Below are positions 13,601-19,600 of a stretch of 44,800 bases of DNA, piece by piece. Made by a program: the position numbers. Where the stretch lies: contig JANMQY010000053.1 of the NCBI GenBank assembly GCA_031370785.1, positions 1 through 44,800 of the forward strand, given 5' to 3'. The DNA comes from Candidatus Eiseniibacteriota bacterium (lineage in GTDB: Bacteria; Eisenbacteria; RBG-16-71-46). Position 1 is the first letter of the stretch; every line of letters begins with the position of its first letter.

Positions 13601-16600
13601 CCCTATCCCAATCCGACAGGCTTCCCGGACTCGGTGCTTGCGGCTTCAGGGCAGGGCACCTTCGAGGACCGGATCGTTTGGACCTGCCCCACCACCGGGC
13701 CCTATGTCATGCGCCTGCGGCGAGGCTCGTCCGGCACGGCGCCCTTCACGTACAATATGACCGTCCGTCCGCTGACCTTCAGCCCCGGCCAGCCACGCGA
13801 CGGGCGTGACGTCGTCCTGGTGAAGTCGTCCGACCAGGGCACCACCTGGAGCTCCGAGCAGCGCGTCAATGACGATGCTGCCGGGCTCGAGAACCGCCGG
13901 CCTTTCGTCGCCGTCAACAGCAGCGGGCAGGTCAGCATCTACTGGCACGACTCGCGGGACGCCGGCTTCGGCTCGAGCGCGTCCCTGACGAGCGTCTACG
14001 GCACGACCTCGCGCGATGGCGGCGCGACCTGGTTGGCGAATTACGCAGTGACCGACGAGCTGTCGTTCTTCTCGCTCAACTCCCTCGCGATTCCCAACCT
14101 CGGCGACTACAACCAGGCCGCCGCGCGCGGCACACCGATCTTCCATCCAGGGTGGTCGGATCAGAGGATCTCCTCGGGGGACGTGCGCACCCCCGGCACG
14201 AACACCTATACAGCCGGCCGCGGCCCCGACGCCTTCACGACCGGCATTTCGTTCTTCATGACCGCGATGTGTCCTCCGGACACGATCGGCTCGCCGGGGT
14301 CAAACGTGGTCCGGGTATTCAGGATCGTCAACAACAGCTCGGTCCCCGACGGCTACAACTACTCGATTACCGATACCGGCGGGTACATTGGCGGCCCGAT
14401 CAACGGCAGCACGACCCTGCTCGCGGCGGGCGATATCGCCTACATCTTCGTAACCGCCTTCGTGCCCGTCGACTGCAATCCCCCCCAGGATATCATCACG
14501 TTCTCGGTGCTTCCCAAGGGCGAGGGCTGCTTCGCGCCCCAGGTGTGCCAGACCAGGATTTTCTGCGACTTGGTGACCGCGACGCTGATCTCGCGCTTCG
14601 ACGCCGCACCCGCGGCGGCCGGCGTGGACCTCACATGGTCGTCGGACGCGGTGGGTCAGATCGTGGCGTGGAACGTCTACCGGACGACAACGGAAGGCGG
14701 CGCCTGGACGCAGATCAACGCTGAGCCCATCGCGATGGGAAGCGGCGGCCAGTTCCGTCTCCATGACGACGTCGTTGCGACGGGGACGCTCTTCTATCGC
14801 CTCGGTGCCGTGCTATCTGATGGCCGCGAGCGAGCCGTGGGCCTGACCCAGTTCGCCTCGGCGGCCGGACCGTTCTCGTTCGCGATCGCGGGGAGTAACC
14901 CGTTCCAGGGCAGGACCACGTTGCGCTACGCGCTGCCTTCGGCCGAACGCGTGCGGATCGACGTCTACAGCGTGAGCGGACAGCGGGTGCGCACGATCAT
15001 GGACCGGACCGAAGCCCCCGGGGTCCACACCGTGGACTTCGCGCTGCGCGGCGAGGGCCAGTCGCTCAAGCCGGGGCTCTACCTGGTGCGCATCCAGGCG
15101 GGTTCGAATCAGAAATCGGTGCGACTGATCGCTCTCGACTAGGCGGGCCCGACGCGACGGCAGTTCAGGCTCCCCGGGGCATGACGCCCGGGGAGCCTTG
15201 TCATGCGCCGCCGGGACGCAGTGCGCCCAGGGCCGCCAGTACGCGCCGCGCGAAGTCGGTGAGCGAAGGGTCGCGCGCCCCCATCACCAGCACCAGGTCG
15301 CCCTCGCGTGCCACCTCGGCGACGCGCGCGATCAGCCATTCGCGCGAAGGCGCGAACTCGGCGGCACAACCGCGCGCGGCGATCTCGCCGACCATGTCGG
15401 CTGCCGAGAAGTCACGCTGCGCGGTGCCGCCGGCGTAGAAGATCTCGAGCAGCCACAGCCGGTCCTCCGGCCCCAGGGACGAGACGAAGCTCTCGACGAA
15501 ATCGCGTCTCAGGAATCGGGTCGGCCCGTAGCCGTGCGGCTGGTAGATTGCGAGCACGCGCGCGGCGCGGCGGCGCGCAGTTTCGATTGCCGCGGTCACC
15601 TTGGTCGGATTGTGGGCGAAGTCGTCCACCACCTCGATCCCGCGCGTGCGGCCGAGTGACTGGAAGCGGCGGCCCACACCCTCGAAGGCGGCGAGCGGCG
15701 CCACCATGTCCGCGAGCGGCACTCCGACCGCACGACAGGTCGCGATCGCGGCCAGGGCGTTCTCAACGTTATACCTCCCGGGCGCAGGCAGCGTGAATCG
15801 GACTCCCCCGACCTGGAAGACGCTGCCATCCGGCCCAAGATCGACACCCTCGCCGCGCACGTCGCTGCGCGGGCCGAAGCCGAACACGGTGCCGCCGGCC
15901 GCCAGATCGGCGAGCCGCGGGTCCTCGCCCGCGACGAACGCTTCGCGCGTCCGGCGGCGCAGGGTCGCGAACATCGCGGCGACCTCGTCCATCTCGCGAT
16001 GATCGCGCTGCAGATTGAGCACCACGCCGACGGCGGGCGCGTAGCGCACCAGCGAGCCGTCGCTCTCATCGGCCTCGACCACGAGCAGATCCGATCCGCC
16101 ATACCAGGCGTTTCCCCACAGCCCCTCACGCTGCAGCATCACCAAGTCCCCGCCGGTGATCACCGACGGCTTGAGCCCGGCGCCGCGCAGGATCTCGAAC
16201 GTCATCGCGACGACCGAAGACTTGCCGCTGGTGCCGCTGATCGCGATGGTGCGGTGCCTCGCGACGAAATGCGCGAGCAGCTCGCTTCGGTGCACGACCG
16301 GCACTCCGCGCGCGCGCGCCGCGACCATGTCAGGCACTTCGGCCTCGACCGCGGTCGAGACCACGAGCGCCGCGCAATCCTCCCCGACCCCGCTTCCGTC
16401 CTGAGCGTGGATCGTGATGCCGCACTTCTCGAGCTGCGCGCGCGAAGCGGTGCGCTCGCCGCGGTCGAACGATCGATCGCTGCCGCTCGCGCGACCGCCG
16501 GTCATGCTCTGGAACTGGGCGAGCGCGCTCATGCCGCTGCCCGCGAGCCCGGCGTAGTGAAAGCGCCCGGCGCCGAGCGGATCGGGCACGCTCGCCGCAT

Positions 16601-19600
16601 CGTCGGGGACGATCAGAACGCGGTCACCCTCGGCGACGCGCTCGTGCAGCTCGATCACGTCGCGATTCGACAGGCGCACGCAGCCGTGCGAGTCCGGCGT
16701 GCCGAGCGCGCCCTCGTGGTTGGTGCCGTGCAGGTAGACGTAGCGCTCGAGCGAGTCCACACCCGGGCCGCGGTTGACGCCCTCCTCGAGGCCCTCGAGC
16801 GTCAGCACGCGGGTCAGGATCAGGTCTTCCTTCTGCGGCTCGCCGCGCCACACCACTCCGGTCGCGACCCGGCTCTCGAATACCGCTCCGCTGGGCGCGC
16901 CGGCCCCGATCCGCGCGTGAATGCCATGCCACCCGGGCGGAGTCCTGAGCGAGCCCGACTCGCTGCCGACGCCGGCGGCCGCGGTCGAAACCGCGTATTC
17001 GCCGATCACCTCGCCACGCTCGATCAGCGCGAGACGCTGGCGGCGAACGTCGACCAGCAACACCCGGCCAGGCGCGGACCCGACCGGAAGGCCGGTGGCG
17101 GATGCGCTCGAGGCGTGTTCGAGGGCAGCGCCGAGCAGCGCGAGGTCGCGTTCTCGGGCAAGAGCGGTGGGAACGAGCATGGGCGCACACTGTGCCACAC
17201 GCCGCGCGCCGCGGAAAACGAACGGGGCCGGTCTTGCGACCGGCCCCGCGCTGGTCCGAGACGATCCCGGATGCGGCCCGCGATTATCTGACCAGAATCA
17301 CGCTGCGCACGACCTGAGCGTCGCTGCCGACGCGCAGCGCCATGAAATACATGCCGGGAGCCAGGCCATTCGCGCGGAATTCGACCGCGTGATCGCCGGC
17401 CTCTGCGTCGCGATCCAGCAACGTCGAGACCAGCTGGCCGGCGACGTTGTAGACCTTGAGCGAAACGTAATCGCTCCTGGGCAGCGAGAACCTGACGCTG
17501 GTGGCGCCCGAGAACGGATTGGGAGCCGCTCCCCGGAATGCCACGGTGCGCGAGAGCGTGGGCGTACCCGCCGTCGGCGTCGCATCGGGCTTCGCCGCCA
17601 TCTGTGGCGCGGCCGCGTTCAGCAGGCTCGGCCGGTACACCGGAACCTGCGAATCCATGCGCACGTCCTGGCCCGCGGTGAACTGCGTGTAGCAGGCATC
17701 GTCCGAGTAATCCATGTAGTTGTGGATCGGATCGAGACCGGCCGTCGGGCAGGTGTCCTTCCCGCTCGGGCAGCCGGAGGTCGAAGTCGCCTCGTCCGGC
17801 GTGTCCGCGACCTGGTCGCCGGGCGCGGTGCAGCCGTTCTGGAATGTGTGATAGAGACCGAGGTAGTGCCCCACCTCGTGATCGAGCGTGCCACCCAGGT
17901 TGTACGGGGCGAGGTATCCGCCCGGCACCGAGCCGTAGTGAAACACAACGCCGTGGTGCCAGTCACCTTCGGGATACGAACTCGGGAAGTAGGCCCAGCC
18001 GAGCAGATTCTGACCCGGCGCGCAGGTGTACACGTTCAAGCGATGGGGAATGTCGGTCGCCAGCGCCTGCTTGGCCTGCCGTTCCGAGGCCGTCCCGGGC
18101 GTCATCTTGAACCACTTGCTGTTGCTGGTGCGGCTCACGCTCGCGAGCACGAACGTGTAGCCGGTATTCGCACCGCCGTAGAAACCCGAATAGGCCTTGT
18201 TGAGCTCGGCGATCTGCGCGTCGATCTGTGACTGCGGGATGTTGCCGGTCGATCCGCTGTAGATCACGTGGAACGCGACCTTGATCTGGCCGCCCACGGC
18301 CTGCGCGCCGAACTCATCCACGTAGCGCTTCAGAGCCGCGCCCTCGGCGAACTGCTCCGAAATGCTCGGTGTGGGAGTGCCGCACACACGCTCGGGCCCT
18401 CCGCCGGCATCGGACTCGGGCAGCTTCAGCGCGAACGCCGAACCTGCGGTGCACAGCAACAGAGCGACGGGAAGGAGAAGTCTGACCTTCATGGCCACCT
18501 CCGGGGGAAGCGCTCTTCGTGGCCCCGACCGCGCCACCCAGGAATCAGGGGGGTTCCCGTGTCCGGCCACGAACGCGGGAAACACTGTCAACATCACCCC
18601 GCGATTGCCAGCGTAAAAATCATCTGAGGTCAGAAAAATGCAAGGCGACGTCGCCCAGTTTAGTAAGTGAGAACGGGGTTTTGTCGGGCCGTACCTTGCT
18701 GCTCGCCACGCCGAACGAAGCCGCGACTTCAGGAGCGCGAGAAGGTCGCCCGCGCGAGCGCGAGCCAGCCGACGAGGAAGCAAACGCCCCCCAGCGGCGT
18801 GACCGCCCCGAAGAGACGCACGCCGCTGAGTGAGAGGGCATAAAGGCTGCCGGAGAACAGCAGCGTGCCGATCGAGAGCAGCCAGCCGGCAGCGCTGAGG
18901 CCCGGACGCGGCTCGCGCTCGGCGACCATCCCGACGTAGAGCAGGGCGAGCGCATGAAACATCTGGTAGCGCGCGCCGGTCTCGAACGCCTGGAGCATCT
19001 CGGGGGAGAGCTGAGCGCGCAGCGCGTGCGCCCCGAACGCGCCCGCCAGCACCGCGAGGAATCCCGAGAACGCGCCGACCCGAGTGAAGTTCATCGGCCG
19101 AGCGTAGTGAGATTCGCGCCGGCGCACCAGCGTGCGTCGCCCACGCCGCCCGAACCACCACGATCACCCGATCACCGCGCCTTCGCCCGAAAAAAAGAGC
19201 CGCCCCCGCGGGCGGTCGATCGGCGGGGGCGGCGGCAAGTGGCTCCTCGGGTAGGATTCGAACCTACAACCCTCCGGTTAACAGCCGGATGCTCTGCCGT
19301 TGAGCTACCGAGGAACGGATCGGGTGCGGCCGGCGCGGGATTTCTGGCTCGAGCCACGTCAAAGTCAGGCCGGGGATTCTAGCCGCCACGCTCGTGCGGG
19401 GTCAAGGAGAGCCCGTGTGCATTGCGCCCGCTCCATTCGCGTGCGGCGCGCCTCAGTGCGCCTCCACGGTCCGGCCCACCGCGAGGCCGCGCTCGATCGC
19501 GCGCGTCGCATATCCGGAGTGGCTGTGAGGCGGCCGATGTTCGAGATGCCAGCGCACCACATCGGGCAGCCACTGATCGAGCGCGGTCGCGGCGAAGCCC

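Follow-up and report, generated by a model that had tools for sequence, protein, structure and literature searches.

The window, 44,800 nucleotides of contig JANMQY010000053.1 from a Candidatus Eiseniibacteriota bacterium, encodes a 659-residue protein in which a YkuD domain resembling the L,D-carboxypeptidase ElsL is joined to a MurC-like ligase. From its sequence, and with a confidence somewhat better than even, we propose that this fusion is a one-protein analogue of the LdcA and Mpl pair, re-using cell-wall peptides in the cytoplasm. Comparative genomics suggests that carboxypeptidase and ligase together serve to recycle old cell-wall peptides, and do so in many phyla without Mpl. A literature search found no published description of a YkuD-ligase fusion.

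In the pathway that we infer, the YkuD domain would act as an L,D-carboxypeptidase, removing D-Ala4 from the recycled tetrapeptide (L-Ala-gamma-D-Glu-mDAP-D-Ala), and the ligase would then couple the tripeptide to UDP-MurNAc with ATP; MurF could extend the resulting UDP-MurNAc-tripeptide to the pentapeptide precursor. Fusion would shield the ligase from untrimmed tetrapeptide, which would yield a dead-end precursor. Passages of a study of A. baumannii, in which Mpl ligates tetrapeptide with toxic effect once ElsL is lost (PMC8649774), provide a selective reason for such a fusion. Searches of the window genome for AmpG and AmpD homologs found none, which makes the AmpG import route implied by the first-pass annotation unlikely; the substrate would more likely be free peptides, probably cut loose by amidases in the periplasm and taken up through an Opp/MppA-like ABC system.

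The fused gene and its domains

The gene lies on the reverse strand at 15201-17180, with 659 codons read from an ATG at 17180 (coding 15204-17180) to a stop at 15201-15203; starting instead at a GTG six codons further upstream in the same frame would lengthen the protein to 665 residues. A terminator-like hairpin (17222-17249, reverse strand; 12-bp stem with 10 G-C pairs, T-rich tail) closes the upstream M43 peptidase gene, so the fusion gene would be its own transcription unit. The protein starts with an amphipathic helix predicted with high confidence (residues 6-25, 17106-17165), which crude hydropathy marks as neither signal peptide nor membrane helix. The 19-residue Kyte-Doolittle mean peaks at 1.54 over the whole protein and stays at or below 0.91 in the first 30 residues; this crude test found no hydrophobic N-terminus, and classes the protein as cytoplasmic, with neither signal peptide nor membrane anchor. 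A place in the cytoplasm also fits the fusion of the YkuD domain to an ATP-dependent ligase and the charged N-termini of fused Nitrospirota homologs.

Four Pfam domains, all on the reverse strand, make up the protein: YkuD (residues 39-190, 16611-17066), the UDP-MurNAc-binding Mur_ligase domain (207-309, 16254-16562), the ATP-binding Mur_ligase_M domain (314-481, 15738-16241), within which alignment places the P-loop GTSGKS (316-321, 16218-16235), and the Mur_ligase_C domain for the incoming amino acid or peptide (504-636, 15273-15671). The fusion reported by the first-pass annotation is thus real, with identical Pfam coordinates, and its four-domain layout recurs in all of the best 120 database homologs; the NCBIfam scores of 271.5 bits for murC, 126.7 bits for ElsL (model positions 8-158 of 164) and 103.9 bits for mpl were also reproduced.

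The YkuD domain matches PF03734 over the cut-off (68.3 against 23.4 bits). With the ElsL model NF040925 it scores 125.8-126.7 bits over positions 8-158 of 164, below the cut-off of 270; periplasmic L,D-transpeptidase models give the same domain at most 26.5 bits, and the YcbB-like YkuD protein of the same genome had no match to the ElsL model at E <= 0.001. The His...(S/T)HGC signature, which we take to be the YkuD catalytic motif, is intact, with S164-H165-G166-C167 at 16680-16691 and its partner His151 16 residues upstream. Across 45 fused proteins H151, S164, G166 and C167 never vary, and H165 is kept in at least 90%. Taken together, the motif, with HGC starting at residue 165, ElsL as by far the best model and the crude hydropathy support the ElsL-like, cytoplasmic YkuD domain first proposed.

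A ligase family apart from MurC and Mpl

The ligase is accessory: it is encoded outside the dcw cluster, and the genome (3.44 Mb, 100% complete) has its 522-bit canonical murC elsewhere, on contig C102, in a murF-mraY-murD-murG-murC-ftsA-ftsZ cluster, as expected from the earlier claim of a second MurC-like ligase outside dcw. Genome searches also agree with the recycling gene content described before, since AnmK is present and neither Peptidase_S66 (LdcA) nor an Mpl over the cut-off was found in this genome.

The window ligase belongs with neither canonical MurC nor Mpl: it falls in a distinct and widespread MurC-like family, a branch of the MurC family that had not been named before and that carries the motifs GTSGKS, DDFAHNP and QPHGxGPTRF. 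One motif scan found this family in at least 599 species genomes, a distribution that overturns the idea that the window ligase split off from the local MurC in this lineage alone. Canonical MurC was rejected as its identity on a score below the cut-off (271.5 against 335.1 bits with TIGR01082), on its separate clade and on the replacement of L-Ala-binding residues. A quick tree (LG+G4, with E. coli Mpl as the only outgroup) gathers 83 rows of the family into a single clade with an SH-aLRT of 99, and places E. coli MurC and the genome's own MurC outside it. H. influenzae MurC binds L-Ala through Tyr346, His348, His376, Arg377 and Arg380, the two arginines of the QPHRxxR loop holding the carboxylate (Das 2011, PMC3060825). 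The window ligase aligns QPHGYGPTR (residues 547-555, 15516-15542) with this loop, and keeps both histidines while Tyr346 becomes Phe521, Arg377 becomes Gly550 and Arg380 becomes Pro553; Tyr346 and Arg380 are 100% conserved among 22 canonical MurC sequences. The family motif DDFAHNP (residues 519-525, 15606-15626) aligns with DDYGHHP in canonical MurC and DDFAHHP in E. coli Mpl.

Canonical Mpl was likewise rejected. The mpl model TIGR01081 scores the window ligase at 103.9 bits, against a cut-off of 388.7 and below the 200.9 bits that it gives the canonical MurC of the same genome. Moreover, the Mpl-specific motif (S/T)AFFDKRSK (Das 2011, PMC3060825), present in E. coli Mpl, is missing as an insertion from all 22 aligned family members.

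Coupling to a carboxypeptidase and the substrate of the ligase

An ElsL-like YkuD was found in 75 loci or genomes, always linked to this ligase: 73 have the two fused or adjacent, one has them 5.6 kb apart, and one is a contig-end fragment. The linkage extends over Eisenbacteria, Krumholzibacteria, Fibrobacterota, Nitrospirota, Syntrophaceae and Elusimicrobiota, at least six phyla with a fused or adjacent arrangement, far wider than first noted. Of 121 genomes of the window phylum, 48 have this YkuD: 47 with the ligase fused to it or as its direct neighbor, and the 48th as a contig-end fragment. The 120 other genomes of the phylum include 31 with a full-length fused match, 5 with a fused but partly seen one and 10 with a separate YkuD gene directly upstream; the sense of the earlier counts (16 of 50 fused, 3 of 6 adjacent) holds, and the numbers differ. 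Among the best 80 loci from other species, YkuD lies upstream on the same strand in 27 (14 in frame without a stop, 12 adjacent in another frame, 1 at 5.6 kb), which include Nitrospirota, Syntrophaceae, Fibrobacterota, Krumholzibacteriia and one Elusimicrobiota single-cell genome. When run on 22 unlinked genomes, the ElsL model returned nothing above 31 bits, and gave 123 and 139 bits in two linked controls.

The phyletic pattern shows the same coupling. All 82 ligase-bearing genomes among the 121 of the window phylum have an L,D-carboxypeptidase (linked YkuD only in 46, Peptidase_S66 only in 35, both in 1), and 31 of the 39 genomes without the ligase have neither, counts in which related genomes are not independent and which, at the level of families, come down to 10 that have both and 7 that have neither. 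One family, f2, has an unfused ligase, 65-68% identical, with S66 instead of YkuD, and this is a non-orthologous swap of the carboxypeptidase around a conserved ligase. The coupling is looser outside the window phylum, where S66 occurs in 7 of 14 unlinked genomes (the Elusimicrobiaceae-type group left out) and, in addition to YkuD, in 2 of 13 linked ones. As a control, in the phylum of genome G150, S66 accompanies true Mpl in 57 of 60 genomes, the two lying within about 3.5 kb in at least 19 of the 57; coupling to a carboxypeptidase is therefore the behavior of a recycling ligase. Canonical Mpl over the cut-off was found in none of the 121 genomes of the window phylum and none of 101 Nitrospirota, and in the control phylum in 0 of 6 genomes matching the fused query at E <= 1e-72 (three clearly fused, two possibly canonical MurC) against 60 of 115 others. 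The linkage in at least six phyla, the S66/YkuD swap and the Mpl-S66 control bear out the earlier view of carboxypeptidase and ligase as a conserved functional pair.

Not all family members follow this pattern. Seven small genomes of the Elusimicrobiaceae type (1.3-1.6 Mb) have no MurC-like gene other than their family member (309-334 bits), which presumably adds L-Ala there, and searches of all seven for S66 and ElsL-like YkuD found neither. The family can therefore probably add L-Ala, and a peptide as substrate of the window ligase is what we infer. The member follows asd-dapA-dapB in eight loci of this clade, and G125 (Isosphaeraceae) and G130 apparently have this MurC type only. Phe521, Asn524 and the loss of both arginines, which distinguish the family from canonical MurC, are common to the Elusimicrobiaceae clade and thus are no argument for a peptide substrate. 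Thirteen positions separate the clade from the YkuD-linked ligases, three of them in the substrate loop, which reads QPHAFtS in the clade and QPHGxGPTRF in all other family members, a difference that counts in favor of the recycling reading.

These sole MurC-like genes, apparently including those of G125 and G130, lend weight to an unlikely but serious alternative, that the ligase is a type-2 MurC adding L-Ala or another single amino acid and fused to a recycling carboxypeptidase through their common precursor supply, the two steps being non-consecutive. MurC is indeed its best match, both by HMM (271.5 against 103.9 bits) and in the Foldseek superposition of the ligase model (TM 0.87 with closed MurC 1p3d, 0.67 with Mpl 3hn7); the family pocket residues are shared with a clade that must be MurC, and MurC-Ddl (NF011171) is a known fusion architecture. 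However, a type-2 MurC would not account for the carboxypeptidase in every one of the 82 ligase-bearing genomes, for the exchange between S66 and YkuD while the orthologous ligase is kept, or for an ElsL-like YkuD never found apart from this ligase. It also has to face a coupling to S66 of the kind seen for true Mpl, a canonical murC already in the dcw cluster of the window genome, and the replacement of the tyrosine and both arginines with which H. influenzae MurC binds L-Ala.

We favor peptide recycling, probably with trimming first. The reverse order, to which we give only a small chance, would have the ligase join any stem peptide, tetrapeptide included, to UDP-MurNAc, with YkuD then trimming UDP-MurNAc-tetrapeptide to tripeptide as a built-in proofreader. 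E. coli LdcA also acts on UDP-MurNAc-tetrapeptide. Mpl enzymes take tri-, tetra- and pentapeptides, according to passages of two reports (PMC3060825; PMC8630537). The predicted structure of the fusion protein (pTM 0.90) suggests a fixed domain arrangement, which would suit this order. It is very improbable that YkuD edits cytoplasmic precursors by transpeptidation (for example terminal D-amino acid exchange) or that the ligase makes a stem peptide of a non-standard type. Exchange reactions are within the reach of YkuD enzymes, and the domain's ElsL score of 126.7 bits falls short of the cut-off of 270, but ElsL is by far the best-matching model and S66 LdcA, a plain carboxypeptidase, replaces YkuD in sister lineages that keep the ligase.

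Beyond the window protein, and more tentatively, at rather less than an even chance, the DDFAHNP ligases may be a third, so far unrecognised UDP-MurNAc ligase lineage beside MurC and Mpl: the missing murein peptide ligase of Mpl-less phyla (Eisenbacteria, Nitrospirota, Fibrobacterota, Bacteroidota and others), recruited for recycling independently of Mpl, making use of whichever L,D-carboxypeptidase is available, paired with S66 or obligately linked, and repeatedly fused, to an ElsL-like YkuD, while keeping enough L-Ala activity to replace MurC in reduced Elusimicrobiaceae genomes. If so, pairing with S66 or the ElsL-like YkuD would let only trimmed peptide reach the ligase.

Comparison with known systems

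Canonical MurC (TIGR01082) is the nearest family by sequence and shares with the window ligase the three-domain fold, the ATP site, the DESDGS motif and, presumably, UDP-MurNAc as acceptor. It differs in its P-loop (GTHGKTT against GTSGKS) and in its place within the dcw cluster, whereas the window ligase stands outside, alongside a canonical MurC. MurC-Ddl (NF011171, PRK14573) also fuses a MurC-type ligase to another peptidoglycan-precursor enzyme, with a C-terminal Ddl instead of an N-terminal YkuD; since it joins non-consecutive steps, it warns against taking fusion for channelling.

ElsL of A. baumannii is described, in passages of two reports, as a cytoplasmic YkuD-family L,D-carboxypeptidase genetically tied to mpl, loss of which suppresses elsL defects (PMC8649774, PMC8630537); passages of the second have E. 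coli LdcA complementing an elsL mutant (PMC8630537). Of the family models, that of ElsL matches the window domain best, with an alignment over almost the whole model. Like ElsL, the window domain has no signal peptide and an intact catalytic motif, although its 126.7 bits fall well short of the curated cut-off of 270. ElsL stands alone and works with canonical Mpl, whereas the window YkuD is fused or adjacent to a ligase of another family.

The closest parallel in proposed chemistry (tetrapeptide to tripeptide to UDP-MurNAc) is the LdcA and Mpl pair, which handles the peptides in the peptidoglycan recycling of E. coli and other Proteobacteria and also shares the ligase-carboxypeptidase coupling in phyletic pattern and neighborhood and the accessory ligase outside dcw. 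Unlike that pair, the window genome yielded no AmpG or AmpD; its carboxypeptidase has the YkuD fold, unrelated to the S66 fold of LdcA; its ligase belongs not to the Mpl family but to a separate clade without AFFDKRSK; and both proposed activities lie on one chain.

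The fusion gene and its product

The gene encoding the fusion protein occupies positions 15204-17180 on the minus strand of the window (stop codon at 15201-15203) and comprises 659 codons from its ATG. A 12-bp terminator-like hairpin (17249-17222) separates it from the upstream M43 peptidase gene and the gene downstream is convergent, so the fusion gene stands alone. The flanking genes, at 11969-15142 on the plus strand and 17284-19167 on the minus strand, encode large proteins with C-terminal Por_Secre_tail secretion-sorting domains, one carrying BNR-like and FlgD-Ig domains and the other a Peptidase_M43 domain. 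We rejected the neighbourhood as a functional clue because these secreted proteins, on both sides, are unrelated to the fusion. Also unrelated is the hybrid histidine kinase (PAS, HisKA, HATPase_c and two receiver domains) encoded at 21349-25594 on the minus strand, which overlaps the start of a response-regulator gene.

The protein contains the Pfam domains YkuD (residues 39-190), Mur_ligase (207-309), Mur_ligase_M (314-481) and Mur_ligase_C (504-636). Against the NCBIfam models it scored 271.5 bits for murC (cut-off 335.1), 126.7 bits for ElsL (model positions 8-158 of 164; cut-off 270) and 103.9 bits for mpl (cut-off 388.7). These domain coordinates and scores reproduce those of the first-pass annotation. 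The YkuD domain retains the catalytic His151 and the S164-H165-G166-C167 motif, invariant or nearly so among 45 fused proteins. In a crude hydrophobicity test, no membrane helix was detected (highest 19-residue Kyte-Doolittle mean 1.54, and at most 0.91 at the N-terminus). An AlphaFold2 model built from the 45 fused homologs had a mean pLDDT of 91.1 and a pTM of 0.90. A sequence search of solved structures with the YkuD domain alone returned weak matches near the catalytic motif only and no ElsL structure.

A separate family of MurC-like ligases

Judged by its sequence, the ligase of the fusion protein is neither a canonical MurC nor an Mpl. Its closest counterparts in a 50%-identity representative library, at 35-60% identity, are either fused proteins or ligases of about 450-480 amino acids. 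Of these, 31 scanned representatives matched the murC model at 239-359 bits, 28 under its cut-off and three just above; the fused representative P0271 did not match that model at the threshold used. Four motifs are common to all 22 aligned family members: GTSGKS, DDFAHNP, QPHGxGPT(R/K) and MGARDPSL. The first is the P-loop, which reads GTHGKTT in MurC and Mpl, whereas DDFAHNP stands in place of the DDYGHHP of MurC and the DDFAHHP of Mpl, and the substrate loop QPHGxGPT(R/K) in place of the QPHRxxR of MurC. The insertion AFFDKRSK of Mpl is present in none of the 22.

A search for the pattern DD[FY]AHNPxK, limited to a single genome for each species, yielded at least 599 confirmed relatives. The best 80 of these loci belong to Eisenbacteria, Krumholzibacteriia, Fibrobacterota, Elusimicrobiota, Nitrospirota, Syntrophaceae, Myxococcota, Planctomycetota, Armatimonadota and Bacteroidota (Chitinophagaceae, Chryseobacterium, Kaistella and Bergeyella). 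A maximum-likelihood tree built quickly from 86 rows unites the 83 family members in one clade (SH-aLRT 99), with E. coli MurC and the canonical MurC of the window's own genome falling outside it. A Foldseek search with the model placed MurC first (1p3d, TM 0.87, rmsd 2.9 Å) and Mpl lower (3hn7, TM 0.67). We rejected this ranking as evidence on the substrate, since the order is largely due to domain closure.

The only names that these proteins bear in databases are 'L,D-transpeptidase family protein', 'Mur ligase family protein', 'glutamate ligase domain-containing protein' and 'UDP-N-acetylmuramate--alanine ligase'. Within our scope (subscription journals and supplements lie outside it), the literature yielded no account of either the fusion or the ligase family; the two ElsL papers and the Mpl structure paper were covered too.

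Coupling of the ligase to cytoplasmic carboxypeptidases

We propose that the fusion protein trims peptides and ligates them in the cytoplasm, so that one chain does the work of LdcA or ElsL together with that of Mpl. In this best-supported reading, which we consider slightly likelier to be right than wrong, the YkuD domain would trim the peptide, as LdcA or ElsL does, and the ligase domain would join it, as Mpl does. LdcA and ElsL are interchangeable, according to PMC8630537.

We followed the three genes through a sample of 121 genomes from the window's phylum, whose closest named records are Candidatus Eisenbacteria, counting the ligase as present at E < 1e-70 and including G015 as one of four genomes of family f2. 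The ligase was found in 82 genomes, accompanied by YkuD only in 46, by Peptidase_S66 (LdcA type) only in 35 and by both in one (G118, 83% complete, in 930 contigs); none had neither and none a YkuD fragment. Among the 39 genomes without the ligase, 31 had neither carboxypeptidase, seven S66 only, one a YkuD fragment, and none YkuD only or both; these are plain genome counts and treat relatives as separate although they are not independent. In G041, G073 and G103, three of the seven genomes with S66 only, the ligase may be present in pieces, given the three weak matches found in each. At the family level, ten families have the ligase and a carboxypeptidase and seven (f4, f6, f9, f11, f12, f13 and f17) have neither. 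Family f2, of the same order as the window's, keeps the ligase unfused at 65-68% identity and has S66 in 5/5 genomes and YkuD in 0/5. Where ligase and S66 lie on one contig they are not adjacent (54 and 158 kb apart). AnmK was rejected as a distribution marker, being present in 94/121 genomes, ligase-less families included. It is also present in G035, a genome of the same class as the window's (93% complete) with no match to the 659-residue query at E <= 1e-20, canonical MurC included; the assembly may have a gap here, or else the lineage is of interest.

ElsL-like YkuD occurs in 48 of the 121 genomes. A single match spans both domains in 32 of them (seven with one stop codon counted inside) and a partial one in five; in ten the YkuD gene lies directly upstream of the ligase gene, and one has a contig-end fragment. 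In other species, among the best 80 of at least 599 loci, YkuD was upstream on the same strand in 27 (tblastn, E <= 1e-5): 14 in frame without a stop, 12 adjoining in another frame and one at 5.6 kb. The in-frame cases come from Nitrospirota (eight), Syntrophaceae or 'delta proteobacterium' (three), Fibrobacteraceae and two unclassified organisms, and the fused open frames measure 636-654 amino acids, except two of 691 and 772 with uncertain starts. The Nitrospirota and Syntrophaceae proteins have charged N-termini, and in Chitinispirillaceae there is a fused representative at 46% identity. With the ElsL model, nothing above 31 bits was found in 22 genomes with an unlinked family member, the two linked controls scoring 123 and 139 bits; thus ElsL-like YkuD was never seen apart from the ligase family. 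Other conserved neighbours in the best 80 loci are lineage-specific only: asd-dapA-dapB in Elusimicrobiaceae, and hutI with a Tet-like MFS transporter, which is not AmpG-like, in Chitinophagaceae.

As a positive control we used 121 genomes of the phylum of G150, in which true Mpl is present. Mpl-type matches (267-451 bits) were found in 60 and S66 in 65; S66 accompanied Mpl in 57 of the 60, and six genomes had S66 without Mpl. Of the 57 genomes with both, at least 19 have canonical mpl no more than about 3.5 kb from an S66 ldcA-like gene, for example at G280:C67:11408-14671 and G267:C78:14783-17043. A true recycling ligase therefore shows tight coupling to an L,D-carboxypeptidase. Mpl was absent from all six control-phylum genomes matching the fused query at E <= 1e-72: three are clearly fused, one is ligase-only at 39% identity, and two, at 35-36%, may be canonical MurC. 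Canonical Mpl over cut-off was found in 0/121 genomes of the window's phylum and 0/101 Nitrospirota. Coupling is looser outside the window's phylum, where S66 occurs in 7/14 unlinked genomes (the Elusimicrobiaceae-type group left out) and 2/13 linked ones. Since G140 and G150 (loci L058 and L095) carry both the fused protein and an S66 gene, YkuD and S66 are not strictly exclusive there.

The window's own genome (3.44 Mb, 100% complete) yielded no Peptidase_S66, no Mpl over cut-off, no match to TIGR00901 or E. coli AmpG, and no Amidase_2/AmpD. Its canonical murC (522 bits) lies in a murF-mraY-murD-murG-murC-ftsA-ftsZ cluster. It also encodes a NagZ-like GH3, at least three Amidase_3 genes (two of the four domain matches share an open frame) and an MppA/OppA-like binding protein (36% identity to E. 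coli MppA over 483 residues). Outside the window, at C84:89909-95022 (L129), murQ and anmK lie on either side of an ABC sugar transporter (SBP_bac_1 binding protein and BPD_transp_1 permease) in one co-directional cluster, which looks like a MurNAc/anhydro-MurNAc salvage locus with an ABC importer in a genome where AmpG and AmpD were not found. Recycled peptides, if any, most likely arrive free and not as anhydromuropeptides. The only other YkuD protein (573 residues; C94:26050-29553, L007:1294-3015, minus strand; Scaffold, PG_binding_1 and YkuD domains) is a YcbB/LdtD-like periplasmic transpeptidase unmatched by the ElsL model, which could make 3-3 cross-links from tetrapeptide donors.

Substrate of the ligase and order of the two steps

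The strongest rival, rather unlikely in our view, is that the ligase is a second type of MurC merely fused to a carboxypeptidase. In a murC-model search of 35 further genomes with a family member, 23 also had canonical MurC over cut-off. Seven small genomes of Elusimicrobiaceae type (1.3-1.6 Mb) contain no MurC-like gene besides the family member (309-334 bits), and S66 and ElsL-like YkuD occur in 0/7. These genomes would be a canonical-MurC-free lineage, and because the family member stands alone in them, we take the family to be very probably able to add L-Ala. E. coli Mpl, too, can add L-Ala when overproduced, according to PMC3060825. In eight Elusimicrobiaceae-type loci (L042, L043, L047, L053, L054, L079, L084 and L090) the ligase gene directly follows dapB, preceded by asd and dapA where the locus extends that far. 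Elsewhere in this search, G125 (Isosphaeraceae) and G130 gave a single sub-threshold match each, G149 and G151 a fragment of a second gene, and G145 two sub-threshold genes.

In the tree, the nine sole-copy rows branch off first within the family (SH-aLRT 97). They carry its distinctive residues and, like the other members, lack the Tyr and both Arg that, according to Das 2011 (PMC3060825), hold L-Ala in H. influenzae MurC. The active-site motifs were accordingly rejected as a signature of a peptide substrate, since they are shared by this Elusimicrobiaceae clade, which must be MurC. In contrast, the substrate loop reads QPHAFtS in the sole-copy clade and QPHGxGPTRF in all other members, and 13 positions, three of them in this loop, part that clade from the linked ligases.

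It is improbable that the same pathway operates with the carboxypeptidase acting after ligation, and a role of the YkuD domain other than carboxypeptidase is very unlikely. For the reading that we favour, ElsL biology supplies a reason for the fusion: according to PMC8649774, when the carboxypeptidase is missing Mpl ligates tetrapeptide into a toxic dead-end precursor, and the defect is suppressed by loss of mpl or ampG. If the fusion protein trims and ligates as we propose, it would be a natural channelling or proofreading device against this precursor.

Should the family be a recycling ligase, it would fill the Mpl gap in several large phyla and be a second case of a MurC-like enzyme evolved to accept peptide. 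The ElsL class, cytoplasmic carboxypeptidases discovered only recently, would then reach far beyond Acinetobacter, and the present annotations ('L,D-transpeptidase family protein', 'Mur ligase family protein', 'UDP-N-acetylmuramate--alanine ligase') would be corrected. A second kind of MurC would still be of interest, with an L-Ala pocket without the residues thought to hold L-Ala. Most of what is known of peptide recycling by LdcA and Mpl comes from Proteobacteria. The pathway logic is already known, and it is the carriers that are new: an uncharacterised ligase family and an undescribed domain fusion, with predicted activity.
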